From assembly GCA_903837075.1 (NCBI GenBank), contig CAILTI010000025.1, positions 1-61,138 on the forward strand: 61,138 nt of DNA, in the 5' to 3' direction. The notes under the pieces are model-generated. The model did no database searches. It was not told where the DNA came from and saw nothing but the letters and a program-made list of their open reading frames with translations. The position numbers and the translations under genes are program-made. This document shows positions 7,393 through 49,309 of the stretch, in pieces. How positions within the stretch are numbered: position 1 is the stretch's first letter; the number at the start of each line of letters is the position of its first letter. Source of the stretch: an uncultured bacterium. GTDB taxonomy: Bacteria; Patescibacteriota; Minisyncoccia; Phycocordibacterales; PALSA-1337.

Positions 7393-7942
7393 TTTTTATA
7401 ATTTTACGCATGCCTCTCCATTTATTTATAATTCGAAGGAAAGATTGATGCGGCTAGTAAGCTAACTGATAATCTAACTCATGCCACTTCTCCCACCTCA
7501 ACGCTATCGACACGCCGAAGTACGAGATTTTGTGGGTACACTAAATACGAACTTATCTAACTAGATATTATTTAGTTTTCAAAGTTCGTGTCTATCCTAC
7601 GAAGCTTTCGCGAGGTAGGATCCCCTCTGCTGTTATGCTTTGGGACGAGGGTATTATAAGTACGAAACTTGTAACACACTCGTTGCAAAACATTATAGCT
7701 CATAATGTACACACTATGCAAAAGGGTGATGTGTGGATAACATTACTAACTATACTATATTTATTTACTAAAAAAGGCCTCAAATCCATGTTTTCTCATG
7801 CTTTTGTGGCTTCGTGTAGTAATAGAGCCATATTAGCTGATTTCGTGCTATTAGTCAATCAAGAGAATGTTCAACGTCCAATGACACAATATTCAGTGGA
7901 CATTGCGTCATTGCCTCGCCTGCCGGCAGGCAGGAATATTGT

Positions 7943-8970: not shown

Positions 8971-11310
8971 ATGGCAAAGAAAAAAGATACCGACCTCGGC
9001 AAGAAAATCAGATTCTGGGATGAGATGAGTACTGGCACCGTGCAGGCCATCTCTGCCATTCTCTCGTTCCTAGTAGCTACGATCGCCCTGTTGGCCGCCT
9101 TTGGAAAGGCGGGAGTAGTCGGTGATTATGCATTCATATTTCTCTCTAGAATGTTCGGTATCGGCTACTACTTGATACCTCTAGTTTTCGCCATGCTCGG
9201 CATAACTTTCCTACAAGGCCTCAAAAGTAAGTTCCAAATATCCAAAGCCCTCGGCGCTCTCCTATTCTTCGTCTCGGGTCTAGGATTGATCCACCTCATC
9301 TATACTGGCGCTGGCGGTGTGATCGGTAAGTTCATCGACTATCCATTCCTCAAACTTATCGACTACTTGGCTACATCGATACTGATGACCGCCGTCCTGA
9401 TCATATCGATCTTCATGACATTCGATCTACATATCACCTGGGAGATGTTGGCATTCTGGCGCAAGAAAGAAACTGAGGAATCGACAGACGTCAAGATCGC
9501 AGCAACAGATGACGAAGACGACATCGATGAGATGGTCGCGGCAGCCAGTGCGAAGAGTGCCGACCAATTGAGTGCACGAGAGATAGAAGCGGCCGCAGCG
9601 AAAGCTAGGATGGAAGCATTGCAGAAAGAAAAGAAGAGTAAAGCCAATACCGGACTCGATCTCGGAGATGACGAAGAAGCGAATTTTGCAGCATTGACAT
9701 CTATGCCGCGCCTCAGACCATTCAATGCTCCTCCTATGTCACTCCTCGAGAAAGATCGTGGTAAACCTGAAACTGGCGACATCAAAGCCAACGCCAATAT
9801 CATCAAACGCACTCTGCAAAACTTTGGTATCACAGTAGAGATGGACGAGATCTCGATCGGTCCATCTGTCACTCGCTATTCATTGAAACCGGCTGAAGGA
9901 GTAAAGTTGTCTAGGATCGTGGGCCTGAACAATGACCTGGCTCTAGCACTAGCAGCACATCCGATACGTATCGAAGCACCGATCCCTGGGAAATCTCTAG
10001 TCGGTATCGAAGTTCCCAATACTGCCAAAACAACCGTCGGACTGGCAACCCTCTTGTCTGCTGCAGAATTCCAGGAATCTGAAAAGCCTCTACTAGTCTC
10101 ACTCGGCAAGGACATCACTGGCAAGGCGCATTTCAGTAACCTTGGCAAAGCACCTCACATGCTGATCGCCGGTGCCACCGGTTCGGGCAAATCCGTCACT
10201 ATTCACGCCCTGATCGCTTCCCTACTCTACCGCAACTCTGCTGATAGTATGAGATTCATCATGATCGACCCCAAACGCGTAGAATTGACCCTATACAACA
10301 AGATTCCTCATTTATTGACTCCTGTTATCACCGACCCAAAGAAAGCTATCCTTGCCTTGAAATGGGCCGCCAAAGAGATGTCCCGCAGGTATGACACGTT
10401 GGAAAAGAATACGATCAGGGACATCGACTCGTATCACAAGAACGTTTTGGCGCCAGCTATTGCAAAATTTCAGAAAAATTCATCTGCGCATCCTTTTGTG
10501 GGGAGTAGTTCCTTCCCTCAAACCCACAAGGGGAATCGGGAAGAAACTCTCCCCCCAGCGGATGCGAATAAGTCCCTGCCAGAAACCATGCCGTACATCG
10601 TCATCATCATCGATGAGTTGGCAGATATCATGCAGAGTTATCCTAGAGAACTAGAGTCCGCTATCGTGAGACTAGCCCAGATGAGTCGCGCTGTCGGTAT
10701 TCACCTCGTTATCTCCACACAGAGACCGAGCGTGAACGTCATCACCGGTCTCATCAAGGCCAACATCCCTACTCGTGTCGCTCTCCAGGTAGCATCACAG
10801 ATCGACTCACGTACCATCCTCGATCAGATGGGTGCTGAAAAATTGCTCGGTGCTGGTGACATGCTCTACCTCGGCGGTGAAATGTCCAAACCTGTTCGTC
10901 TACAATCCGCATACATCTCTGAGTCAGAGGTTAAGAAAGTAGTAAAGTTCATCTGCGACCAATATATAGACGATATTCCTGAAACTATCGATTTCGCAGC
11001 AAAAACTCCTGAAGCAGGTTCAACTTCTGCCTTCGCGGCGATGGATGACGGTGATTCCATAGAAGACGATGACGATATGTACGAACCAGCGAGAGAGGCA
11101 GTCATCACCGCCAACAAGGCCTCTACATCATTCATCCAACGCAAACTCGGTATAGGATATTCTCGTGCAGCGAAACTCATAGACATGTTAGAAGAACGCG
11201 GCGTGATCGGTCCTGCCAATGGTTCCAAGCCTAGGGAGATCATAGGAGTAGGAGGTGCTACTGCTACGATCAGTATTCCGACCGAAGAAAGTGAGCCACC
11301 TATCTTTTAG
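8971..11310 (+). CDS. ftsK: DNA translocase FtsK/SpoIIIE
   Basis: N-terminal TM helices and an acidic linker. Walker A AGATGSGKS, Walker B IIIDELAD, gamma wHTH SFIQRKLGIGYSRAAKLIDMLEERGVIG. Confidence 0.95.
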   Translation: MAKKKDTDLGKKIRFWDEMSTGTVQAISAILSFLVATIALLAAFGKAGVVGDYAFIFLSRMFGIGYYLIPLVFAMLGITFLQGLKSKFQISKALGALLFFVSGLGLIHLIYTGAGGVIGKFIDYPFLKLIDYLATSILMTAVLIISIFMTFDLHITWEMLAFWRKKETEESTDVKIAATDDEDDIDEMVAAASAKSADQLSAREIEAAAAKARMEALQKEKKSKANTGLDLGDDEEANFAALTSMPRLRPFNAPPMSLLEKDRGKPETGDIKANANIIKRTLQNFGITVEMDEISIGPSVTRYSLKPAEGVKLSRIVGLNNDLALALAAHPIRIEAPIPGKSLVGIEVPNTAKTTVGLATLLSAAEFQESEKPLLVSLGKDITGKAHFSNLGKAPHMLIAGATGSGKSVTIHALIASLLYRNSADSMRFIMIDPKRVELTLYNKIPHLLTPVITDPKKAILALKWAAKEMSRRYDTLEKNTIRDIDSYHKNVLAPAIAKFQKNSSAHPFVGSSSFPQTHKGNREETLPPADANKSLPETMPYIVIIIDELADIMQSYPRELESAIVRLAQMSRAVGIHLVISTQRPSVNVITGLIKANIPTRVALQVASQIDSRTILDQMGAEKLLGAGDMLYLGGEMSKPVRLQSAYISESEVKKVVKFICDQYIDDIPETIDFAAKTPEAGSTSAFAAMDDGDSIEDDDDMYEPAREAVITANKASTSFIQRKLGIGYSRAAKLIDMLEERGVIGPANGSKPREIIGVGGATATISIPTEESEPPIF
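10486..10566 (+). repeat. Family A palindromic element, diverged copy, in frame in ftsK
   Basis: GCGCATCC..GGGGAGtagttCCTTCCC..CCCacaaGGGG..GGGAAGAaacTCTCCCC..GGATGCG. Collinear with 16940-17022. Confidence 0.8.
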
Positions 11311-16550: not shown

Positions 16551-17474
16551 CTATTTCTGTAGTTCAAAGAAATTTCGTGCGTTGGCAAGGACTCGTTCGG
16601 CGACTTTATCAGCACTTTCACCACGAATCTCGGCTATCTTTTTTACAACTTCGATAACATAGGATGGTTCGTTCCTCTTGCCTCGATATGGTATCGGTGC
16701 CACAAATGGGCAATCAGTCTCTGTCATTATCTTGTCGGCTGGTGCCGATCGGATAAGTTCGTCGTAATTCCGTGCAAAAGTGACCACGCCAGTAAATGAA
16801 ATGCTGCAGCCCATCGACAACGCCTCATTCATGTCCTCCATCGTACCCGCAAAGAAATGAAAATTTGCAGGAACTTTCGCATACGTGCGCAATATTTGGA
16901 TAGCTTCCTGATAGGCATTACCGCCCGCTTCTGTCAGTGGCGCACCCTTTTGGGAGGAGTAGCTTCCTCCCTCAAACCCATAAAGGGAATCGGGAGGAAC
17001 CTCTCCTCCCAAGCGGGTGCGCGTATTTATAGAAACTTTCGAATTTACAGTAGCATTCCTCACATGCAACATGAGAGGTTTCCTGACAATATTTGCCAAT
17101 TCGATATGTTGGATGAAAACTACTCTTTGATGCGCCATATTCGCCGGTTCGGAATGAAAATAGTCTAGTCCACATTCACCTATAGCGACAACTTTTGGAT
17201 GCCGCGCCAACTCCGTGAATGCAGCAATGTCGAATGAACTATCTTTGGGTGGACCATCACCCCTCGATCCGGCTGCTTCCGTAGGATGCATACCTATGAT
17301 GGCCCACATGTCATCGTGTTTCTCTGCCAACACGACGCACGCCCTTGAGGACACGAGATCTGTCCCCACCGTGATGATGCCGACACCGGCATCATGTGCG
17401 CGCTTTATAACTTCTTCCCTATCTGCGTCATATTCAGGAAAATTGACGTGACCATGTATGTCTATGTAGTTCAT
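16551..17474 (-). CDS. tatD: TatD-family metal-dependent hydrolase, carrying a family A insert
   Basis: IDIHGHVNF, GECGLDY, LMLHVRNA, ETDCPF motifs. Confidence 0.9.
   Translation of the reverse strand: MNYIDIHGHVNFPEYDADREEVIKRAHDAGVGIITVGTDLVSSRACVVLAEKHDDMWAIIGMHPTEAAGSRGDGPPKDSSFDIAAFTELARHPKVVAIGECGLDYFHSEPANMAHQRVVFIQHIELANIVRKPLMLHVRNATVNSKVSINTRTRLGGEVPPDSLYGFEGGSYSSQKGAPLTEAGGNAYQEAIQILRTYAKVPANFHFFAGTMEDMNEALSMGCSISFTGVVTFARNYDELIRSAPADKIMTETDCPFVAPIPYRGKRNEPSYVIEVVKKIAEIRGESADKVAERVLANARNFFELQK
16940..17022 (+). repeat. Family A palindromic element, best copy (83 nt), in frame in tatD
   Basis: GCGCACCC tttt GGGAGGAgtagctTCCTCCC tcaaa CCCataaaGGG aatc GGGAGGAacctcTCCTCCC aagc GGGTGCGC. 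Confidence 0.9.
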
Positions 17475-21538: not shown

Positions 21539-21646
21539 AATCTTGGTAACAGAGTGTAGAAGGGGTACGGATATTTTCCTGCTGGAAAATTCCTCGTGCT
21601 CGCACCAGTGCTCGCAAGCCCCCTTCTCCCCTCTGTTACCAAGATT
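21539..21646 (+). repeat. Family B element, intergenic copy 18 nt after the glyQS stop
   Basis: 62-nt core GGGGTACGGATATTTTCCTGCTGGAAAATTCCTCGTGCTCGCACCAGTGCTCGCAAGCCCCC flanked by AATCTTGGTAACAGAG / CTCTGTTACCAAGATT. Confidence 0.9.
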
Positions 21647-26404: not shown

Positions 26405-29400
26405 CTAGATTCCCAATTTTACCGACATATCACCGACCATTTGCGTCTCCCCCTCAACACCGGTATATAGAATGACATTCAGTGAAGTTGCTCCGATTAT
26501 TGCTGGCTCATTCCTTTCGACGAACTTCCGACCTTCGTCATCGACTTCGATTTTCAAATCTACCTTGTCATTCAGTGTCAGTCCCTTCTCTTTACGCAGA
26601 TCCTGAATCATACGGATAAGTTCACGGACCATGCCTTCTTCCTTGAGTTCCGGAGAGATCATGATATCGAGATCTATTCTCACGCCACCAGAATCTATAA
26701 ATAGATGGTTGTCCTTTTCTACAACTTTAGATTTCGCGTCACTGGACGACGGCTCTAGAGCTGTCGATGCGATAACGACCTTCTCTGACACGACACACTT
26801 TACATTCAATTTTTCTTTGATGATGTCACGAAAACCCTCTGAGATATCTGCCACAGGCTTTTCTGAAGACACTTTCCCTTCATTGGTAACACCAACACCG
26901 AGATCATATACCAATCTCGCCAATGGCTGTCGAACACCTATCTTCTTGTATGAACGTAGAGACAATGCCACTTCGACGATCTTTCGCGTCGTTCCCATCT
27001 GAGCGAGCAACTTCTCATCTATCTTGTGTGCGGTCGGCCAATTCTCTAGATGCACACTCTCGAGCTCGCCTCCTACCTCTCCGTAAACGTGATCCGCGAA
27101 AAATGGTGCCATAGGTGCCATGACCTTCGAAAGCGTCATGAGGACATAGCGTAGAGTCATGAGCGCCTCAGACTTCTCTGTGGCACTACCCTTGAAACGA
27201 TCCCTGGAACTCTGCAAATACCACTGAGAAAGATCGGCGATAAAATCTCTGATCGCTCTAGTTGGTTCTAGGAATTTGTAAGCATCTAGATTTTCCGTAA
27301 CAGTCTGAATGAGCTGATCCAGGCGGTTCAATATCCATCGATCGAGGACATTCGAGAGACTAGAGTTCCAACCTTCACCAAGATTTCGGCTGGTGGATAC
27401 CGTGTAAGATATGGAGTGATCGGCATACAATTTGTAGAATGACAAAACATTCTCCACCATATTGAATACTTTCTTGACCATCTCATCAACGGTCTTCTCG
27501 TCAAAGTTTTTGGAATCGCCAGGTTGATTGACCGAATACATCCACAGACGCAATGCATCAACTCCGTATTTATCCATCATTTCCCATGGACTAACGACGT
27601 TACCTATCGACTTGCTCATCTTCTTGCCCTTCACATCTAGAACGTGCCCGAGACAAATAACATTCTTGTAGGCCGCTCCTTTGCCCATGATCGTACCGAT
27701 CGCATGCAATGTGTAGAACCACCCCCTTGTCTGATCGATCGCCTCAGAAATGAAATCCGCCGGATATGGCATCTTCTCATTCTTTGCACCCAAGATATGA
27801 TCTTGCGCAAAAGGCATAGATCCAGAATCGAACCAGACGTCCATAACCTCCTTGGCACGGTTCATCGGACTACCACAATCACAGACCAATTTCACAGCAT
27901 CTATGAATGGTCGGTGTAGATCGAGTTCATAGTTGGCATCATGTGGCACCTTGGAAAATTCTACTTTTCTAACCTCGGCATTCCCGATAAAATCGCCGGT
28001 TTTTCTCAGACCTTTGGCACTCTCTATATCGATACCCATAGCCGCCGCACACAGCAGCATTGCAGGAGTCTCATGAGTGATGATCAATATATTCTTTCCT
28101 TCATATTTACTATCAATATCATAGAGAAATTCGCCTGTTCTTTTCTTTATATCCATGTAATCCTCTCCACCCTCTGGCCTCCAGAACCATCTATCCTGAC
28201 CAGCGTGAGCGTGACCGAGTTCAGAAACTGGCTTACCCTCGAAAACTCCAGTGCTATATTCTCCGACACGTTTATCGACGATCACCTGTGACGCATCCAA
28301 CCCTAGTGCAGGCGCCACGATCTTGGCGGTTTCCAATGTTCGTAATATTGGTGAAACATATATGAGATCGATCTTCAATGACTTCAGTTGTTTCATCGCT
28401 GTCTCGATCTGCGTCCTACCTTTCATGGTCAGATGATTCGTCGTCGTGATACTACTGTCGAGAATGCCCAAGATATTATTATCAGCCTCACCATGTCGCA
28501 TGACATGATATGTATTCCTCGGTTTCTCGATGATCTCAGCAACAGAGCCGATCACCCTGTTAGCATGACAAGAGTGACATGTCCATACCGGTAACGGCGT
28601 TCCCCAGTATCTCTCACGCGATATTGCCCAATCTTTGACTTCACGAAGCCACTCACCAAACCTCCCTTCTTTGGTATGGTCTGGCTCCCAATGAATGCTC
28701 TCATTTTCCTTGACCAACTTTTTGCGAAGTTCTGACATCCGGATGTACCAGCTGTCACGTGCAAAATATATGAGTGGCGTATGACAGCGCCAACAGAATG
28801 GATATGTATGCTCGTATTTTTCCTTGGCAAACAAAAGTCCGCGGCCTGCCAGGTCCCTGATGATGGTCACGTCGGTGTTAGGATCTTTGACAAAGGCACC
28901 AGCCAAGAATCCAGCCTCCTTCTTGAATGTCCCGTCCTCATGAACCAGATGATATTTTGGCAAACCAACCTTTGTACCGAGTTCAAAGTCATCCTGACCA
29001 TACATGACCGCCGTATGCACTATACCTGTACCATCAGACGTCGTGACGAAGTCCGCAGCATATACTTTGTAGGCGTTTCCTAATTTTTCCTTTTCAGCAC
29101 CTGATATATGGTCTTTGAGAAATGGGTAAAGTGGCTCGTACTCTACTCCGACGAGGGCGGAACCTTTGATGGTTTCGACTATTTCTGGTTCAGTGAATTG
29201 ACCTTTGATCACTTCATATCTGTCCTTGGCAACTATATAGGTTTCTTCTGCGCTCCTGACCTTCACATAATCAATCTTCGGATTTACTGCCAAACCAACA
29301 TTGCCTGGCAATGTCCACGGCGTGGTCGTCCATGCCAATAGATATGTAGGCGATGTCTGATTCTGAATTTTGGATTTTGGATTTGTTTCGGATTTTGGAT

Positions 29401-30079
29401 TTGGAATTTTGAATTTGACTGTCAACGAGAGGTCCTTCACTGTCTGATATCCTTGTGCCAATTCATGAGAAGATAATGCCGTACCACATCTCGGACACCA
29501 AGGCACCACCTTATAATCTTTATAGAGTAACTCTTTCTCATCCGCGGTTTTTATGACATTCCAAACTGCCTCGATATATTTTGGCTTGTATGTGATGTAT
29601 GGATCCTTGAGATCTGCCCAGTAACCGATCCTCTCCGTGAACTCTGTCCATTCATTTACATATCTCCAAACACTCTCTTTGCATTTGTCATTGAATGCAC
29701 CGATGCCATAGGAATCGATCTCTTTCTTGGACTTCAATCCTAGCTCTTTCTCCACTTGCAGTTCGACTGGTAGTCCATGAGTATCCCAACCTCCTTTCCT
29801 TCGCACATGATAACCGCGCATAGTTTTGTAGCGTGGAATGGCGTCCTTGAATGCACGCGCCTCGAGGTGGTGAATACCTGGATGCCCATTGGCTGTCGGT
29901 GGTCCTTCATAGAAAACGAACTCCCCTTTTGGAGCCTTGCCGGCAGGCCATTTATTCAATGATTTTTCGAAAATACCCTTCTCTTTCCATCGTGCCAAAA
30001 TCTTCTCCTCACGAAGCGCGTGAGTGCTTTTCAGGATCTTGACTCCTTCGGGCTTTGTGTTGTCTATCTGATCAGCCAT
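26405..30079 (-). CDS. ileS: Isoleucyl-tRNA synthetase (type 2) with an embedded histidine-phosphatase domain
   Basis: PTANGHPGIHH, WTTTPWTLP, KMSKSIGN. 1224 aa; residues ~520-712 are a PGAM-like domain. Confidence 0.97.
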   Translation of the reverse strand: MADQIDNTKPEGVKILKSTHALREEKILARWKEKGIFEKSLNKWPAGKAPKGEFVFYEGPPTANGHPGIHHLEARAFKDAIPRYKTMRGYHVRRKGGWDTHGLPVELQVEKELGLKSKKEIDSYGIGAFNDKCKESVWRYVNEWTEFTERIGYWADLKDPYITYKPKYIEAVWNVIKTADEKELLYKDYKVVPWCPRCGTALSSHELAQGYQTVKDLSLTVKFKIPNPKSETNPKSKIQNQTSPTYLLAWTTTPWTLPGNVGLAVNPKIDYVKVRSAEETYIVAKDRYEVIKGQFTEPEIVETIKGSALVGVEYEPLYPFLKDHISGAEKEKLGNAYKVYAADFVTTSDGTGIVHTAVMYGQDDFELGTKVGLPKYHLVHEDGTFKKEAGFLAGAFVKDPNTDVTIIRDLAGRGLLFAKEKYEHTYPFCWRCHTPLIYFARDSWYIRMSELRKKLVKENESIHWEPDHTKEGRFGEWLREVKDWAISRERYWGTPLPVWTCHSCHANRVIGSVAEIIEKPRNTYHVMRHGEADNNILGILDSSITTTNHLTMKGRTQIETAMKQLKSLKIDLIYVSPILRTLETAKIVAPALGLDASQVIVDKRVGEYSTGVFEGKPVSELGHAHAGQDRWFWRPEGGEDYMDIKKRTGEFLYDIDSKYEGKNILIITHETPAMLLCAAAMGIDIESAKGLRKTGDFIGNAEVRKVEFSKVPHDANYELDLHRPFIDAVKLVCDCGSPMNRAKEVMDVWFDSGSMPFAQDHILGAKNEKMPYPADFISEAIDQTRGWFYTLHAIGTIMGKGAAYKNVICLGHVLDVKGKKMSKSIGNVVSPWEMMDKYGVDALRLWMYSVNQPGDSKNFDEKTVDEMVKKVFNMVENVLSFYKLYADHSISYTVSTSRNLGEGWNSSLSNVLDRWILNRLDQLIQTVTENLDAYKFLEPTRAIRDFIADLSQWYLQSSRDRFKGSATEKSEALMTLRYVLMTLSKVMAPMAPFFADHVYGEVGGELESVHLENWPTAHKIDEKLLAQMGTTRKIVEVALSLRSYKKIGVRQPLARLVYDLGVGVTNEGKVSSEKPVADISEGFRDIIKEKLNVKCVVSEKVVIASTALEPSSSDAKSKVVEKDNHLFIDSGGVRIDLDIMISPELKEEGMVRELIRMIQDLRKEKGLTLNDKVDLKIEVDDEGRKFVERNEPAIIGATSLNVILYTGVEGETQMVGDMSVKLGI

Positions 30080-36234: not shown

Positions 36235-38085
36235 CTACATCCTCTTCGGTACCTTGATTCCGAGCAACCACAACCCTTCAGTCATCGTCCTCAAGAACGT
36301 CCTGGTAACGAGCAGTCGATAGACCGACAACGGGTCCTGGATGTCTATGATAGTTTGTGTCGCATAAAATGCATTGAATGCGCCGGCGAGCTGCACGAGG
36401 TAGTTCGCCACACCCTGTGGTGCATACTCATCTCCTGCACGCCCCGCGATATCAGTGAAGCGAACGATCAACCTTTCTAGCAGGCCGACTGTCTCTGGCA
36501 ACATTACTTCCCCCTTGTCCAGACCCTTTATACTCTCCTTAACCGCTTTGTCCAATATCGATTGCGCCCTAACCGCTGAATATTGCAGATATGGCCCAGA
36601 ATCTCCCTCGAAGGATATAGATGCCGCGGAGTCAAAAACGACATTGCCACCGATCGCCTGACGGAGGATGGTGTATTTGATAGCCCCGATCGCGATCATA
36701 TCAGCGATCTCATCCGCCTCATCAACATCGAATGCTCTATCAGCGATCTTTTCCATGACCATCTTCTTCATATCTCCGATCAATGACTCGGCAGCTATCA
36801 CATTGCCTGTCCTAGATGACATCTTGCCAGTGGCAAACCTGAGCATACCGTGTCCGATATGTATAGTCTTTGAACCGTTCTTCTCATCGATCAGAGAAAG
36901 TACTTTCGTGAGCACCTTGAAATATTCATTCTGCTCGTTGGCTGTGATGATGATGGACTTTGTGGCATCTGGATATTTCTGAAATTTTGTTACGTTCAAT
37001 CCAACATCCTTCGTCTCATATGTCGGCAGTCCGCGACTATTCACAAATACGCGAGTATGTAGCCCGTGATCTTCACCTTTGAATACGATCGCTCCATCAC
37101 TCTCTTCGAATACACCGATATTCGCACCCAAATCTGTCGATTTTGTATCACCCGATCTTTCGGCTTGTTCACCTTTCATATGCTCCCTCACCACCTTCAT
37201 GCCTACCGGAGCCATCTCACTCTCGAATATTTGCCGATCGAACTTCGTGCCCAGAAGTTGGTAAAGCATATCGAAATGTTCCAAACTCCATGCCCTGCCC
37301 TTTTCATAGAGATCATTCACCGCTTCATCAGACTCATCGTAGACTGCCTGGTTCAATTCATCTATCTCATTCTTCGCCGACGGGTCAGTGTCATAGATAT
37401 TGGTACCTTCGACATACATCTTGCCCAGAAATGCCGTCCTCTCTGCTATAGGTGCCGCTTCACTCGGTATCTCACCTAGGTGCAGTTGCATCGCCCAGAT
37501 CGCCTTGGCGATATGCAGACCGATATCCGACGGATAGCAGATTCTCACAACTTTCGCGCCACCAAATTCTATCAACCTAGAAATGGATTCCCCGATAGTA
37601 TTCGACATGACATGCCCGATGTGAAATGCCTTGAACGTATTGGGGTCTGTGTATTCGATGAGAACGGTGTTCCCTTTTCCGTCCTTTTGGGAGGAGTAGC
37701 TTCCTCCCTCCTGCCGGCCGGCAGGCACGGCAAACCCGTAAAAGGAATCGGGAGAAACCTCTCCTCCCAAGCGGGCAGATTTACTAATCTTAACAACATC
37801 CTCCGCAAAAACCTTATCCTCAATTTTAAAATTTATGAATCCCGGTCCAGCCATAGAAATATCTCGTATTCCCAATCCTTCAATATTTGAATTCTTCAAT
37901 CTTTCAATGATTTTCTCCGCCAACTCCTTCGGAGCCATCTGCAATTGCTTGGCATATGAGAGTGCGGCGTTCGTCGAAAAGTCTCCGTGGTCCAGATTTT
38001 CCGGATAATCTATCTTTACCAGTGGCTCGGAGATGCCGAGATCTATGAGAACAGTCCTCAATGCGTCGATGATGTATTGCTTCAT
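36235..38085 (-). CDS. argS: Arginyl-tRNA synthetase, carrying a family A insert
   Basis: AFHIGHVMS (HIGH-type), DALR-type C-terminal domain, C-terminal ..KRM. Confidence 0.95.
   Translation of the reverse strand: MKQYIIDALRTVLIDLGISEPLVKIDYPENLDHGDFSTNAALSYAKQLQMAPKELAEKIIERLKNSNIEGLGIRDISMAGPGFINFKIEDKVFAEDVVKISKSARLGGEVSPDSFYGFAVPAGRQEGGSYSSQKDGKGNTVLIEYTDPNTFKAFHIGHVMSNTIGESISRLIEFGGAKVVRICYPSDIGLHIAKAIWAMQLHLGEIPSEAAPIAERTAFLGKMYVEGTNIYDTDPSAKNEIDELNQAVYDESDEAVNDLYEKGRAWSLEHFDMLYQLLGTKFDRQIFESEMAPVGMKVVREHMKGEQAERSGDTKSTDLGANIGVFEESDGAIVFKGEDHGLHTRVFVNSRGLPTYETKDVGLNVTKFQKYPDATKSIIITANEQNEYFKVLTKVLSLIDEKNGSKTIHIGHGMLRFATGKMSSRTGNVIAAESLIGDMKKMVMEKIADRAFDVDEADEIADMIAIGAIKYTILRQAIGGNVVFDSAASISFEGDSGPYLQYSAVRAQSILDKAVKESIKGLDKGEVMLPETVGLLERLIVRFTDIAGRAGDEYAPQGVANYLVQLAGAFNAFYATQTIIDIQDPLSVYRLLVTRTFLRTMTEGLWLLGIKVPKRM
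37678..37777 (+). repeat. Family A element in frame in argS, with nested 16-nt GC palindrome
   Basis: TTTTGGGAGGAGTAGCTTCCTCCCTC + CCTGCCGGCCGGCAGG + ..AAACCCGTAAAAGGAATCGGGAGAAACCTCTCCTCCCAAGC. Confidence 0.9.
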
Positions 38086-46378: not shown

Positions 46379-46476
46379 ATAACAATGAATGGTGCAGGGG
46401 TACGGATATTTTCCTGCTGGAAAATTCCTCGTGCTCTCACCAGTGCTCGCAAGCCCCCTTCACCCTTCATTGTTAT
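46379..46476 (+). repeat. Family B element, intergenic copy 22 nt after the DUF541 gene stop
   Basis: The core differs from the 21539-21646 copy at one position. Flanks are ATAACAATGAA / TTCATTGTTAT. Confidence 0.9.
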
Positions 46477-47326: not shown

Positions 47327-47434
47327 ATACGAATCTACGAATATTACAAATATGCGAATGATTACGAATGTTATCTAGCCTACTCATGTGGATTCGTATC
47401 CATTCGCATATTCGCACCACTCGTAGATTCGTAT
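47327..47434. repeat. 108-nt imperfect palindrome built from TACGAAT-type words, abutting the folD stop
   Basis: ATACGAATCTACGA (47327-47340) / TCGTAGATTCGTAT (47421-47434). AATATGCGAATG (47349-47360) / CATTCGCATATT (47401-47412). Confidence 0.8.
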
Positions 47435-48310: not shown

Positions 48311-49309
48311 TCATTTTGCACTCCACCTGGCATAGATACCAGCCGGTAGCAATCTCATTCCTTCCTCCTTCCTTCCCTCTCCTATCGCGAGCTCCCCTAT
48401 CTCTATATGTCCACCAAATTTTTCCACGAGTGGTAGCAAATTATTTTCATAAGCCACCGCCGAGTAACCGGCCGAATAACCATTGATGAGGAAAAATAGC
48501 GGCCGATCTTTCAATAATGTTATACATTGATCGATGAGTGGCAAAAAATGTTCTTCTATCTTCCAAAGCTCACTATCCGGTCCATGACCGAATGCTGGCG
48601 GATCCATGATGATACCGTCGTATCTATTACCCCTTTTCAATTCCCTGCGTACGAATTCCCTGGCATCATCCATGATCCAGCGAACAGGTTTGTCTTTGAG
48701 ACCAGATAACTCCGCATTGTCTCGCGCCCAGGTCATCGCGGTTTTCGATGAGTCGACGTGCACAACATTCGCACCAGATTGTGAGCACGCTAGAGTCGCT
48801 CCGCCCGTGTAACCGAATAAATTTAGAATATTTATAGTATCGCTTTCTGTCTGAGAAGATTGAACGGGCACGGATATTTTCTTGCTAGAAAATTCCTCGT
48901 GCTCGCCCCGTCGGGCTCGCAAGCCCCCTTCACTCTTCTCAGACAGAAAGCTTTGAATGATATTTCGTAACCAATCCCAATTCGCTGATTGCTCTGGGAA
49001 AATACCGACATGCTTGAAAGATGAAGGTTTCACCCACAGCTTGAGTCCGCCAAATTCTATCGGCCATCTATCGAGTTTGCCGTTTTTCATCGTCCACTTG
49101 CCGTCACTACCATCACGAGAAAAGTGTCCGTCTGCTTTCGCCCATTCAGTTTGTGCCGACTTCTTGTGCCACAACGCCTGTGGATCTGGCCTAGAGAGAA
49201 CCACCGTACCAAAACGTTCGAGCCTCTCCCCCTCTCCAGAGTCGATCAACTCATAATCGGCACTCGACTCGGTTACCAAGATGTTAGATATTTTATTCAG
49301 ATTTGACAT
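48311..49309 (-). CDS. Class I SAM-dependent (RlmI/RlmK-like rRNA) methyltransferase, carrying a family B insert
   Basis: HVGIFPEQ, NLFGYTGGATLA (motif I), IIMDPPAFG (motif IV). Confidence 0.8.
   Translation of the reverse strand: MSNLNKISNILVTESSADYELIDSGEGERLERFGTVVLSRPDPQALWHKKSAQTEWAKADGHFSRDGSDGKWTMKNGKLDRWPIEFGGLKLWVKPSSFKHVGIFPEQSANWDWLRNIIQSFLSEKSEGGLRARRGEHEEFSSKKISVPVQSSQTESDTINILNLFGYTGGATLACSQSGANVVHVDSSKTAMTWARDNAELSGLKDKPVRWIMDDAREFVRRELKRGNRYDGIIMDPPAFGHGPDSELWKIEEHFLPLIDQCITLLKDRPLFFLINGYSAGYSAVAYENNLLPLVEKFGGHIEIGELAIGEGRKEEGMRLLPAGIYARWSAK
48842..48951 (+). repeat. Family B element in frame inside the methyltransferase gene
   Basis: The core carries compensatory changes. 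Perfect 18-bp flanks GCTTTCTGTCTGAGAAGA / TCTTCTCAGACAGAAAGC. Confidence 0.9.

Follow-up and report, generated by a model that had tools for sequence, protein, structure and literature searches.

A family of hairpin-shaped repeats with a conserved three-way-junction core and copy-specific stems in Patescibacteria

We analysed a stretch of 61,138 nucleotides (contig CAILTI010000025.1 of assembly GCA_903837075.1; the window in the following) from an uncultured member of the Patescibacteria near Candidatus Taylorbacteria. Here, a gene for a class I S-adenosylmethionine (SAM)-dependent methyltransferase carries in its reading frame a palindromic repeat, which we call Family B and which is found twice more in the window, between genes. 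The methyltransferase matches Pfam family PF10672 with its residues 155-243, and its nearest solved structure is 2IGT, RlmI (3C0K) and RlmL (3V8V) being more remote. The gene and its repeat, copy 3 of the window, are composed as follows:

48311-49309, minus strand: host gene, class I SAM-dependent methyltransferase of 332 amino acids (PF10672), related to 2IGT, RlmI and RlmL
48842-48951, minus strand: whole of Family-B copy 3, outer stem and three-way-junction core, in frame in the methyltransferase gene
48934-48951, minus strand: gene-proximal arm, GCTTTCTGTCTGAGAAGA in gene sense, coding (S)FLSEK; homologous in its outer part to codons of the ancestral linker
48842-48859, minus strand: gene-distal arm, TCTTCTCAGACAGAAAGC in gene sense, coding SSQTES; inverted copy of the gene-proximal arm, missing in insert-free orthologues
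48842-48934, minus strand: extra stretch relative to the inferred ancestral linker, 93 nt or 31 codons, AGT...AGC in gene sense; core with inner stem (74 nt) and new arm
48865-48928, plus strand: conserved core, match to covariance model R1 with 86.4 bits
48876-48893, plus strand: hairpin 1, ATTTTCT-TGCT-AGAAAAT
48905-48916, plus strand: hairpin 2, GCCC-CGTC-GGGC

On the forward strand, the perfect 18-bp inverted repeat (GCTTTCTGTCTGAGAAGA at 48842-48859 and TCTTCTCAGACAGAAAGC at 48934-48951) encloses a centre of 74 nt and gives a copy of 110 nt in all. Its minimum free energy is -59 kcal/mol on the plus and -63 kcal/mol on the minus strand, with z near -10.5 relative to shuffled sequences. 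The copy is translated as ..FLSEKSEGGLRARRGEHEEFSSKKISVPVQSSQTES.. immediately ahead of LNLFGYTGG (motif I), which bears out the statement of a first-pass annotation of this DNA that the core is read in frame in the methyltransferase. In an AlphaFold model of the protein, the mean predicted local distance difference test score (pLDDT) is 85 overall and below 50 at residues 135-155, within the insert; the 31 added codons are thus predicted to encode a disordered segment.

The two further copies lie between genes:

21539-21646, plus strand: Family-B copy 1, after the stop of the GlyRS gene and before the start of an M16 peptidase gene, with its own perfect arms of 16 bp
46379-46476, plus strand: Family-B copy 2, between a SIMPL-domain gene and secE, with its own arms of 11 perfect bp and further pairs

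The window contains the core pattern three times (at 21567, 46402 and 48870), against 0.00 occurrences expected in shuffles, and all three copies fold into a long stem bearing a three-way junction (z from -5 to -11 against shuffles). The cores of copies 1 and 2 are 1 nt apart in sequence, and their arms, AATCTTGGTAACAGAG/CTCTGTTACCAAGATT (16 bp) in copy 1 and ATAACAATGAA/TTCATTGTTAT in copy 2, are without similarity; the arms of none of the three copies have another match in the window. Hairpin 1 reads ATTTTCC-tgct-GGAAAAT in both intergenic copies and ATTTTCT-tgct-AGAAAAT in copy 3, a change from C-G to T-A on both sides, whereas hairpin 2 is GCAC..GTGC in copies 1 and 2 as against GCCC-cgtc-GGGC in copy 3. 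A role of the arms as guides, or their origin as copies of other loci, was considered and rejected, since no match with up to two mismatches is present elsewhere in the window or in the related locus L049. A terminator scan, limited to loops of 3-8 nt, gave no flag at copies 1 and 2. No transfer RNA (tRNA) or transfer-messenger RNA was found in the window, and such an origin of the element was rejected.

Scanning of species-representative genomes (one per species) with a pattern made from two of the junction strands yielded 44 loci. True copies account for 42 of them, all in Patescibacteria, namely in Yonath-, Taylor-, Nomura-, Moranii- and Berkelbacteria and in Paceibacterota; the remaining two, in Acidobacteria, are hits by chance. 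Besides the window, the comparison covered loci of 8-20 kb. The core pattern is missing from viral contigs. Comparison with Rfam 15 gave no match in the window at gathering score and, around the element, only chance hits to microRNA precursors (E of 0.09 or more, with E up to 10 allowed). The repeat is multicopy per genome, with three copies in the 61 kb studied here and up to four among the loci fetched from one metagenome-assembled genome. We regard Family B as a family of hairpin-shaped, non-autonomous repeats that belongs to the Patescibacteria (Paceibacteria).

What is conserved is a three-way junction some 60 nt long, with the fixed junction strands ACGGAT, TTCCTCGTGCTC and CTCGCAAG and two small hairpins that are free in sequence and always paired. 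Among 45 aligned cores the ACGGAT strand, which is no part of the search pattern, is almost invariant. In the same alignment 96% of the cells are paired and 11 of 18 pairs have changed on both sides, values reached by 0 of 500 shuffles and far above those of slid controls. Double-sided changes concern six of the ten pairs of hairpin 1, in which 99.5% of cells are paired across the family, and three of the four pairs of hairpin 2; at L010 an unrelated 12-bp hairpin stands in place of hairpin 1. A structured core with compensatory changes, as proposed from the window alone, is hence confirmed by covariation. The covariance model retrieved more, and more diverged, members in metagenome loci (e.g. 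L078, L097 and L124), in which the junction strands drift and the architecture is unchanged. The model marks a widespread structured motif that is lacking from Rfam.

One diverged subfamily has conserved arms (AAAATAAGCTCTTYTCAA/TTYCAAAGACTTATTTT) and in many genomes follows the methyltransferase gene directly on its downstream side, in either orientation and with compensated hairpin changes (L117:10931-10994, L088:11002-11065, L102:11029-11092, L101:1941-2007, L097:1070-1134, L098:10945-11009 and L124:10958-11021). It could be an old insertion that was retained, or a functional element. The association with this gene is confined to the diverged subfamily: the methyltransferase gene is present at none of the 44 species-representative loci.

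In 46 copies the outer pairs have a median of 28 and a longest perfect run of 30, which is reached in L003, L015, L017 and L031, as compared to a median of 8 and a longest run of 9 in control flanks taken 300 nt away. The outer repeat had been regarded as a peculiarity of copy 3; in fact all three window copies have one of their own, and so has nearly every family member in other genomes. [quoted passage not shown] Here the arms are unrelated among the three window copies and among most of the 46, and it is the centre that is conserved. Two subfamilies in other genomes share imperfect inner arms, with several copies per genome, one of the Yonathbacteria type (L001, L002, L007, L009, L010, L021, L023, L035 and L042) and one of a 'T' type (L004, L008, L013, L025-L028 and L040). 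These have further outer repeats that differ from copy to copy, although those of the 'T' type are alike and may be diverged homologues. Shared flanks, which the first-pass annotation had named as a sign of ordinary subfamilies of a longer element, therefore do exist in other genomes, but not among the three window copies.

Among the copies with the most perfect arms, reading of the flanks revealed no recurrent direct target duplication. The L045 core is flanked on each side by CATG, and in one subfamily TTCA borders the closing helix at both ends. Because TTCA is limited to this one subfamily, a fixed target of that kind, as in IS200/IS605, was rejected. Palindromes without a core show no surplus in the window (two observed, about 0.7 expected in shuffles), and therefore there is no supply of long target palindromes. 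Together with the shortest methyltransferase orthologues, which have no extra residues, this agrees with the earlier view that the arms are tied to the insertion and are no chance palindrome.

The history of an insertion can be followed best in the methyltransferase. In its orthologues the linker comprises 22 to 83 residues. The Family-B core is present in the same orientation and frame in the window protein and in P0001, P0002 and P0003 (the latter encoded at L045), and also in P0013 and P0016 of a more distant clade. Window and L045 have inserts of equal length (93 nt) at the same codon position, the extent being based on a codon alignment with L128, L047, L045 and L129. The residues coded by the upstream arm, (Q)SFLSEK for the window and (R)SSLPPH for L045, align with QSSLDQH of L128 and ENSL of P0008, both free of the insert; in the linker motif QS[FS]L, QSFL of the window corresponds to QSSL (P0007, P0009, P0003) and ENSL (P0008). 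Since the upstream arm aligns with the ancestral linker of insert-free orthologues, only one arm and the core are new (93 nt). The alignment of orthologues that had been suggested for finding the ancestral arm thus gave a divided answer, with one arm ancestral (QSFL/QSSL) and the other new.

In the window as well as in L045, the downstream arm matches the reverse complement of the upstream one exactly. Between these two genomes, about 10 of 18 arm positions differ and each pair is still perfect, so that the perfection must have been maintained after the insertion. The window core shares its hairpin-1 variant and the length of hairpin 2 with the L045 core and not with copies 1 and 2 of its own genome, which points to one ancestral insertion in the methyltransferase rather than repeated ones. 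In the closely related strains L048 and L049 (99% identical) there is one mismatch in the downstream arm of the window (AGC to AAC in L049).

Other relatives have lost parts of the element. The independent assemblies L047 and L050 have both arms and no core (TTCTCTCCACTCTCATGAGGGGGGAGAGAA, 13 of 15 positions match), and L128 lacks the core as well as the second arm. Over 2.8 kb of aligned DNA, L045 groups with L128 as its sister (93.5% identity; 119 informative sites as against 32 and 18) and L047 stands outside; a neighbour-joining tree of the proteins agrees, and its clade also contains the window and P0002 copies. From this phylogeny it follows that the arms-only and the empty forms are states of loss. 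A core-free orthologue with both arms had been regarded beforehand as evidence against an origin of the arms with the insertion. Such orthologues were found (L047/L050), but they are not decisive because the phylogeny and the similarity of the cores indicate a secondary loss of the core. Once the core was lost, the arms began to decay. Taken together, the methyltransferase copy is an old insertion common to related species, one lineage of which lost the core, whereas others are without the insertion. At copy 2, the intergenic region of L047 and L128 is too diverged to be aligned for an orthologous empty site. The closest relative of the window protein is P0004 (L129:531-1439), an insert-free methyltransferase whose linker has a 12-nt direct repeat, CAATTAAACAAT, twice; this suggests that the linker was remodelled in L129.

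A second example is RecG. One insertion is common to L029, L132 (91% protein identity) and L133 (79%), whereas L134 (81%) has only SNGP at this site. The outer part of the downstream arm codes G-K-L of the conserved ..LYFSNPK, in which G-x-L is conserved. In the three lineages this constrained arm shows the synonymous variants AAG CTC, AAG TTA and AAA CTA. The upstream arm mirrors them as GAG CTT, AAA CTT and AAG TTT, and there the amino acids are changed between E and K and between L and F. From the mirrored changes we conclude that the stem extends into host codons and that the unconstrained arm follows the constrained one. The arms of L029 have perfect runs of 15 and 16 bp, and L132 and L133 have three or four mismatches there. 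The signature of template switching at an inverted repeat, namely one pre-existing arm, the other as its reverse complement and correction in blocks, is hence found in the methyltransferase and in RecG, the event itself not being seen. A new chemistry of inverted target duplication had been proposed for copy 3. With one arm ancestral, arms matched after the insertion and mirrored arms in RecG, this idea is not supported, and no new insertion chemistry is needed to explain the methyltransferase copy.

Apart from the copies between genes, about one in six lies in frame in a housekeeping gene, at a variable surface loop of the encoded protein. At least nine copies are located inside long open frames and are translated in at least four frames and from both strands of the element. 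Eight unrelated, conserved host genes carry such stop-free insertions at variable loops; they encode the methyltransferase (window, L045, L130 and L131), RecG, IF-2, Tgt, Fmt, MnmA, a transketolase C-terminal domain protein and an FAD-dependent dehydrogenase. Over six frames the cores contain 1.9 stop codons each, in comparison to 4.7 in composition-matched shuffles. All coding copies found are a multiple of 3 in length and stop-free in the frame of the host, but they were recognised by that very property. As the reading frame is conserved and stop codons are depleted, we infer that the insert is retained in mRNA and protein. An in-silico excision of the element for the detection of split genes was uninformative, because many trial boundaries fuse neighbouring genes by chance.

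The methyltransferase linker (orthologues of window 48311-49309) and one loop of RecG (L029:6337-7998 and orthologues) are hot spots of insertion, where several unrelated and recurrent insert families occur in different lineages of Paceibacteria. Examples are GHFGLSEGEGELAATSPEVDGVSR and ARSAKLxSRN..STDGLPS..SARSDSSRPR in the linker, and ERDGASIAQGEHALTRVGE, SEPSSxAxRNE..PRKDxFASDSxVRAxxIVGEE and GGESSLDLSExKRRHPxGWADGGQSTLAP in the RecG loop. In-frame insertion of repeats thus appears to be lineage-wide.

The two strands of the element are not equivalent. Mismatches in the core are 9 A.C versus 2 G.T on the plus strand and in the arms 70 versus 37, and an A.C on the plus strand of the window corresponds to a G.T or G.U on the opposite one; in 42 of 46 copies it is the minus strand that folds better. 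Orientation relative to the flanking genes is mixed among the intergenic copies, and relative to GC skew it follows no rule (the plus strand of the model lies on the G-rich strand in 31 and on the C-rich strand in 18 cases). As the folding is asymmetric without a rule of orientation, the asymmetry is a property of the element itself rather than of its host context. What this suggests is an intermediate that is single-stranded, has a fixed polarity and is recognised by shape and junction sequence.

With slightly better than even confidence, we read Family B as a non-autonomous repeat that spreads as a single strand and whose arms are made and homogenised by template switching during replication. 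A new insertion would bring the core alone. During replication the nascent strand would then fold back on the closing helix of the core and copy the adjoining host flank in inverted form, which would give a perfect, copy-specific stem. Later template switches from arm to arm would keep the arms matched during drift and could lengthen them into host codons. Spread would proceed via a single-stranded form whose polarity is fixed (reverse complement of the plus strand of the window) and which a putative trans-acting factor would recognise through shape and junction sequence. Within genes the element would persist by means of read-through and its scarcity of stop codons. Template switching at inverted repeats is known to homogenise and expand arms and to make perfect stems in one event (PMC8794818, PMC13100816). 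The arm pattern observed here comprises new arms at each insertion, one of them of host sequence, later changes in concert and occasional extension. It is because template switching yields this pattern that we regard the closing helix of the core as the probable seed of fold-back copying.

Several observations weigh against this reading. L128, the sister of L045, is without core and second arm, and an almost precise secondary loss has to be assumed there. The creation of arms at insertion is inferred and not seen, as none of the near-identical strains examined offers a truly empty site for any copy. Lagging-strand-template transposition would let one expect a bias in orientation to genes or GC skew, and there is none. 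A purely replication-driven model leaves the strong conservation of the junction strands unexplained. The diverged subfamily holds one syntenic position 3' of the methyltransferase gene with compensated hairpins, which fits a host function equally well as selfish persistence. Finally, the search for a trans-acting enzyme that had been recommended detected no transposase or nuclease among the 20 open reading frames of the window scanned against Pfam, all of which are housekeeping genes or have no Pfam match.

The strongest rival is a core that serves the host, as a functional structured RNA or a single-stranded DNA signal, for instance an element of processing or stability at gene ends or a protein-binding three-way junction, with the coding copies as by-products. 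We give it a low but appreciable probability. The conservation of the junction strands over several lineages of Paceibacteria would be accounted for, as would the compensated hairpins which many genomes have at a single syntenic site downstream of the methyltransferase gene, the arm pairing kept in place even within RecG, and one strand being clearly the better folder. However, copies stand in both orientations relative to their flanking genes, the diverged subfamily included, and are read in several frames within eight different housekeeping genes. Moreover, copies 1 and 2 have no T run after the stem on their transcribed strand, Rfam gives no match even at E up to 10, and both copy number and positions vary between related genomes. 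For pairing kept inside genes, an intervening sequence that is removed from the mRNA, with the stem cut at its base and the ends religated, would be another explanation, and RecG and the methyltransferase, where the pairing is kept in place, would fit it. We find it hardly credible, since all coding copies found are stop-free multiples of 3 in the host frame (with the reservation, given above, on how they were recognised) and the cores are depleted in stop codons; conserved frame and stop depletion make removal at the RNA level unnecessary.

Two further explanations deal with the origin of the arms. The core could insert into the centre of pre-existing palindromes or hairpin loops, so that the arms are the two halves of the target. 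There is a precedent in SDR5, which was proposed to insert into the HIP1 palindrome of cyanobacteria (PMC5861425). The arms-only quasi-palindrome of L047/L050 is centred on CATG and the L045 core lies between two CATG; in addition, the hairpin-1 loop of copy 2 has taken up a 20-nt palindrome in a 99% identical strain, and a variant of this palindrome lies in a Family-A element (both described below). This mode of insertion is nevertheless improbable in our view: the window offers no supply of long coreless palindromes, the arms of 25-30 bp are not terminator-like in composition, and L047 falls outside the pair of L045 and L128, the arms-only form being a state of loss in the trees. A window core nearer to that of L045 than to the copies of its own genome argues for a single insertion. 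For an ordinary MITE, with terminal inverted repeats recognised by a transposase and old subfamilies that only seem copy-specific, there is just a slight chance. The Yonathbacteria type and the 'T' type, with imperfect arms shared by several copies per genome, are what such an element would leave. Against it stand cores 1 nt apart with unrelated arms, the central and not terminal position of the conserved part, and no consistent direct target duplication in the flanks that were read. Even in the subfamilies with conserved inner arms the outer repeats differ between copies, though they are alike and maybe diverged homologues.

Beside Family B, other small repeats were noticed. In L048/L049, the perfect 20-nt palindrome CCTGCCTGCCGGCAGGCAGG is located in the hairpin-1 loop of copy 2 (L049:12893-12912), and it is not present at window 46379-46476. 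This palindrome and its variants are found at window 7915-7935 and 37711-37731, at L045:1349-1368 and in L135-L169; among the variants are a window intergenic site and a 21-nt in-frame insertion within the Family-A element of the ArgRS gene. In viral contigs with 38-68% GC, 35 stretches contain the exact 20-mer, as compared to about 0.05 expected by chance on a rough estimate. It is often present several times per viral contig, in D-loops and variable loops of tRNAs without target duplication and in arrays of heptamer repeats. Perhaps it is a mobile palindrome of very small size, similar to the SDRs of cyanobacteria, or possibly an artefact.

Family A (GCGCACCCTTTTGGGAGGAG...CTCCTCCCAAGCGGGTGCGC) is a second hairpin repeat of the window, located at 10486-10563, 16940-17022 and 37678-37779, in all cases in frame, in the genes for FtsK, TatD and ArgRS. 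A compensatory change is seen in its outer stem, GCGCACCC/GGGTGCGC versus GCGCATCC/GGATGCG. In L024 and L041 a Family-B core is apparently nested in a Family-A-like element. Between the FolD and SIMPL-domain genes (window 47327-47434) there is a long imperfect hairpin with 43-nt arms, 84% complementary, made up of TACGAAT-like heptamer repeats, and akin heptamer arrays flank other elements (L102, L156). At window 26405-30079 (minus strand), an isoleucyl-tRNA synthetase has a complete histidine phosphatase domain (His_Phos_1) inserted at residues 526-708.

Rather doubtful, though conceivable, is a wider notion which would unite Family B, the 20-nt palindrome and Family A in one class of selfish hairpins of Patescibacteria without a conventional transposase. 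A single strand would be copied to a new site by ectopic template switching, snap back, build its stem from host DNA and keep converting it, and nested insertions would be a major source of extra loops in housekeeping proteins. Irrespective of this, Family B offers an unusually clear natural case of a conserved structured core with a host-derived stem that evolves in concert. If the fold-back model is true, mobile DNA is linked to template-switch mutagenesis, and perfect stems together with new peptide segments arise in one step. Patescibacteria have tiny genomes, yet their conserved proteins contain many unexplained extra segments, and hairpin repeats inserted in frame supply at least a part of them. 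Such elements will confound gene calling, alignment of orthologues and the discovery of RNA motifs in these genomes.

Several known systems can be compared to Family B. Template-switch mutation copies adjoining sequence as its reverse complement in a single step and gives perfect stems, multi-nucleotide compensatory changes and arm expansion (PMC8794818; PMC13100816; PMC10710096). It is a general mutation process, whereas in Family B a mobile conserved core would seed it again and again, with a stem of host DNA for each copy. REP/REPIN sequences with RAYT and the MITEs derived from IS200/IS605 are similar in being short and non-autonomous, in hairpin-dependent recognition, probably as single strands, and in the strand-specific folding this implies (PMC3116915; PMC3733652). 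REPs are palindromes of 20-40 bp with a GTAG or CGTC tag at one end (PMC3733652). Family B, on the other hand, is a 60-nt three-way junction without such a tag at the foot of its stem, CGTC being confined to the hairpin-2 loop of some copies. It also differs by the lack of a family-wide fixed target tetranucleotide and of an orientation bias to replication, and no RAYT or TnpA gene is nearby among the 20 open reading frames scanned.

The Rickettsia palindromic elements (RPEs) are palindromic repeats that are read through in frame in housekeeping genes (Ogata et al. 2000, as summarised in PMC10969869). Family B resembles them as a palindromic repeat of about 100-150 bp which in a reduced genome enters unrelated housekeeping genes in frame at permissive sites, with several families coexisting. 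RPE families are reportedly conserved along their entire length, whereas Family B, in another phylum, is conserved only in its central 60 nt and has a copy-specific stem. We know of no three-way-junction covariation described for RPEs. In Nostoc, the families SDR4-6 reportedly have a conserved central motif of 21-27 nt with flanking inverted repeats of unconserved sequence, are said to be nested in other repeats and in heptamer arrays, and are said to have no known transposase. The conserved centre, the unconserved flanking inverted repeats, the nesting and the lack of a known transposase are shared with Family B, which differs by its 60-nt three-way junction, as against SDR cores of 21-27 nt in a cyanobacterial host; the 20-nt palindrome is the closer SDR analogue. 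In comparison to both RPEs and SDRs, what is new in Family B is the co-varying three-way junction of 60 nt, the phylum of the host and the evidence for a stem of host sequence that evolves in concert.

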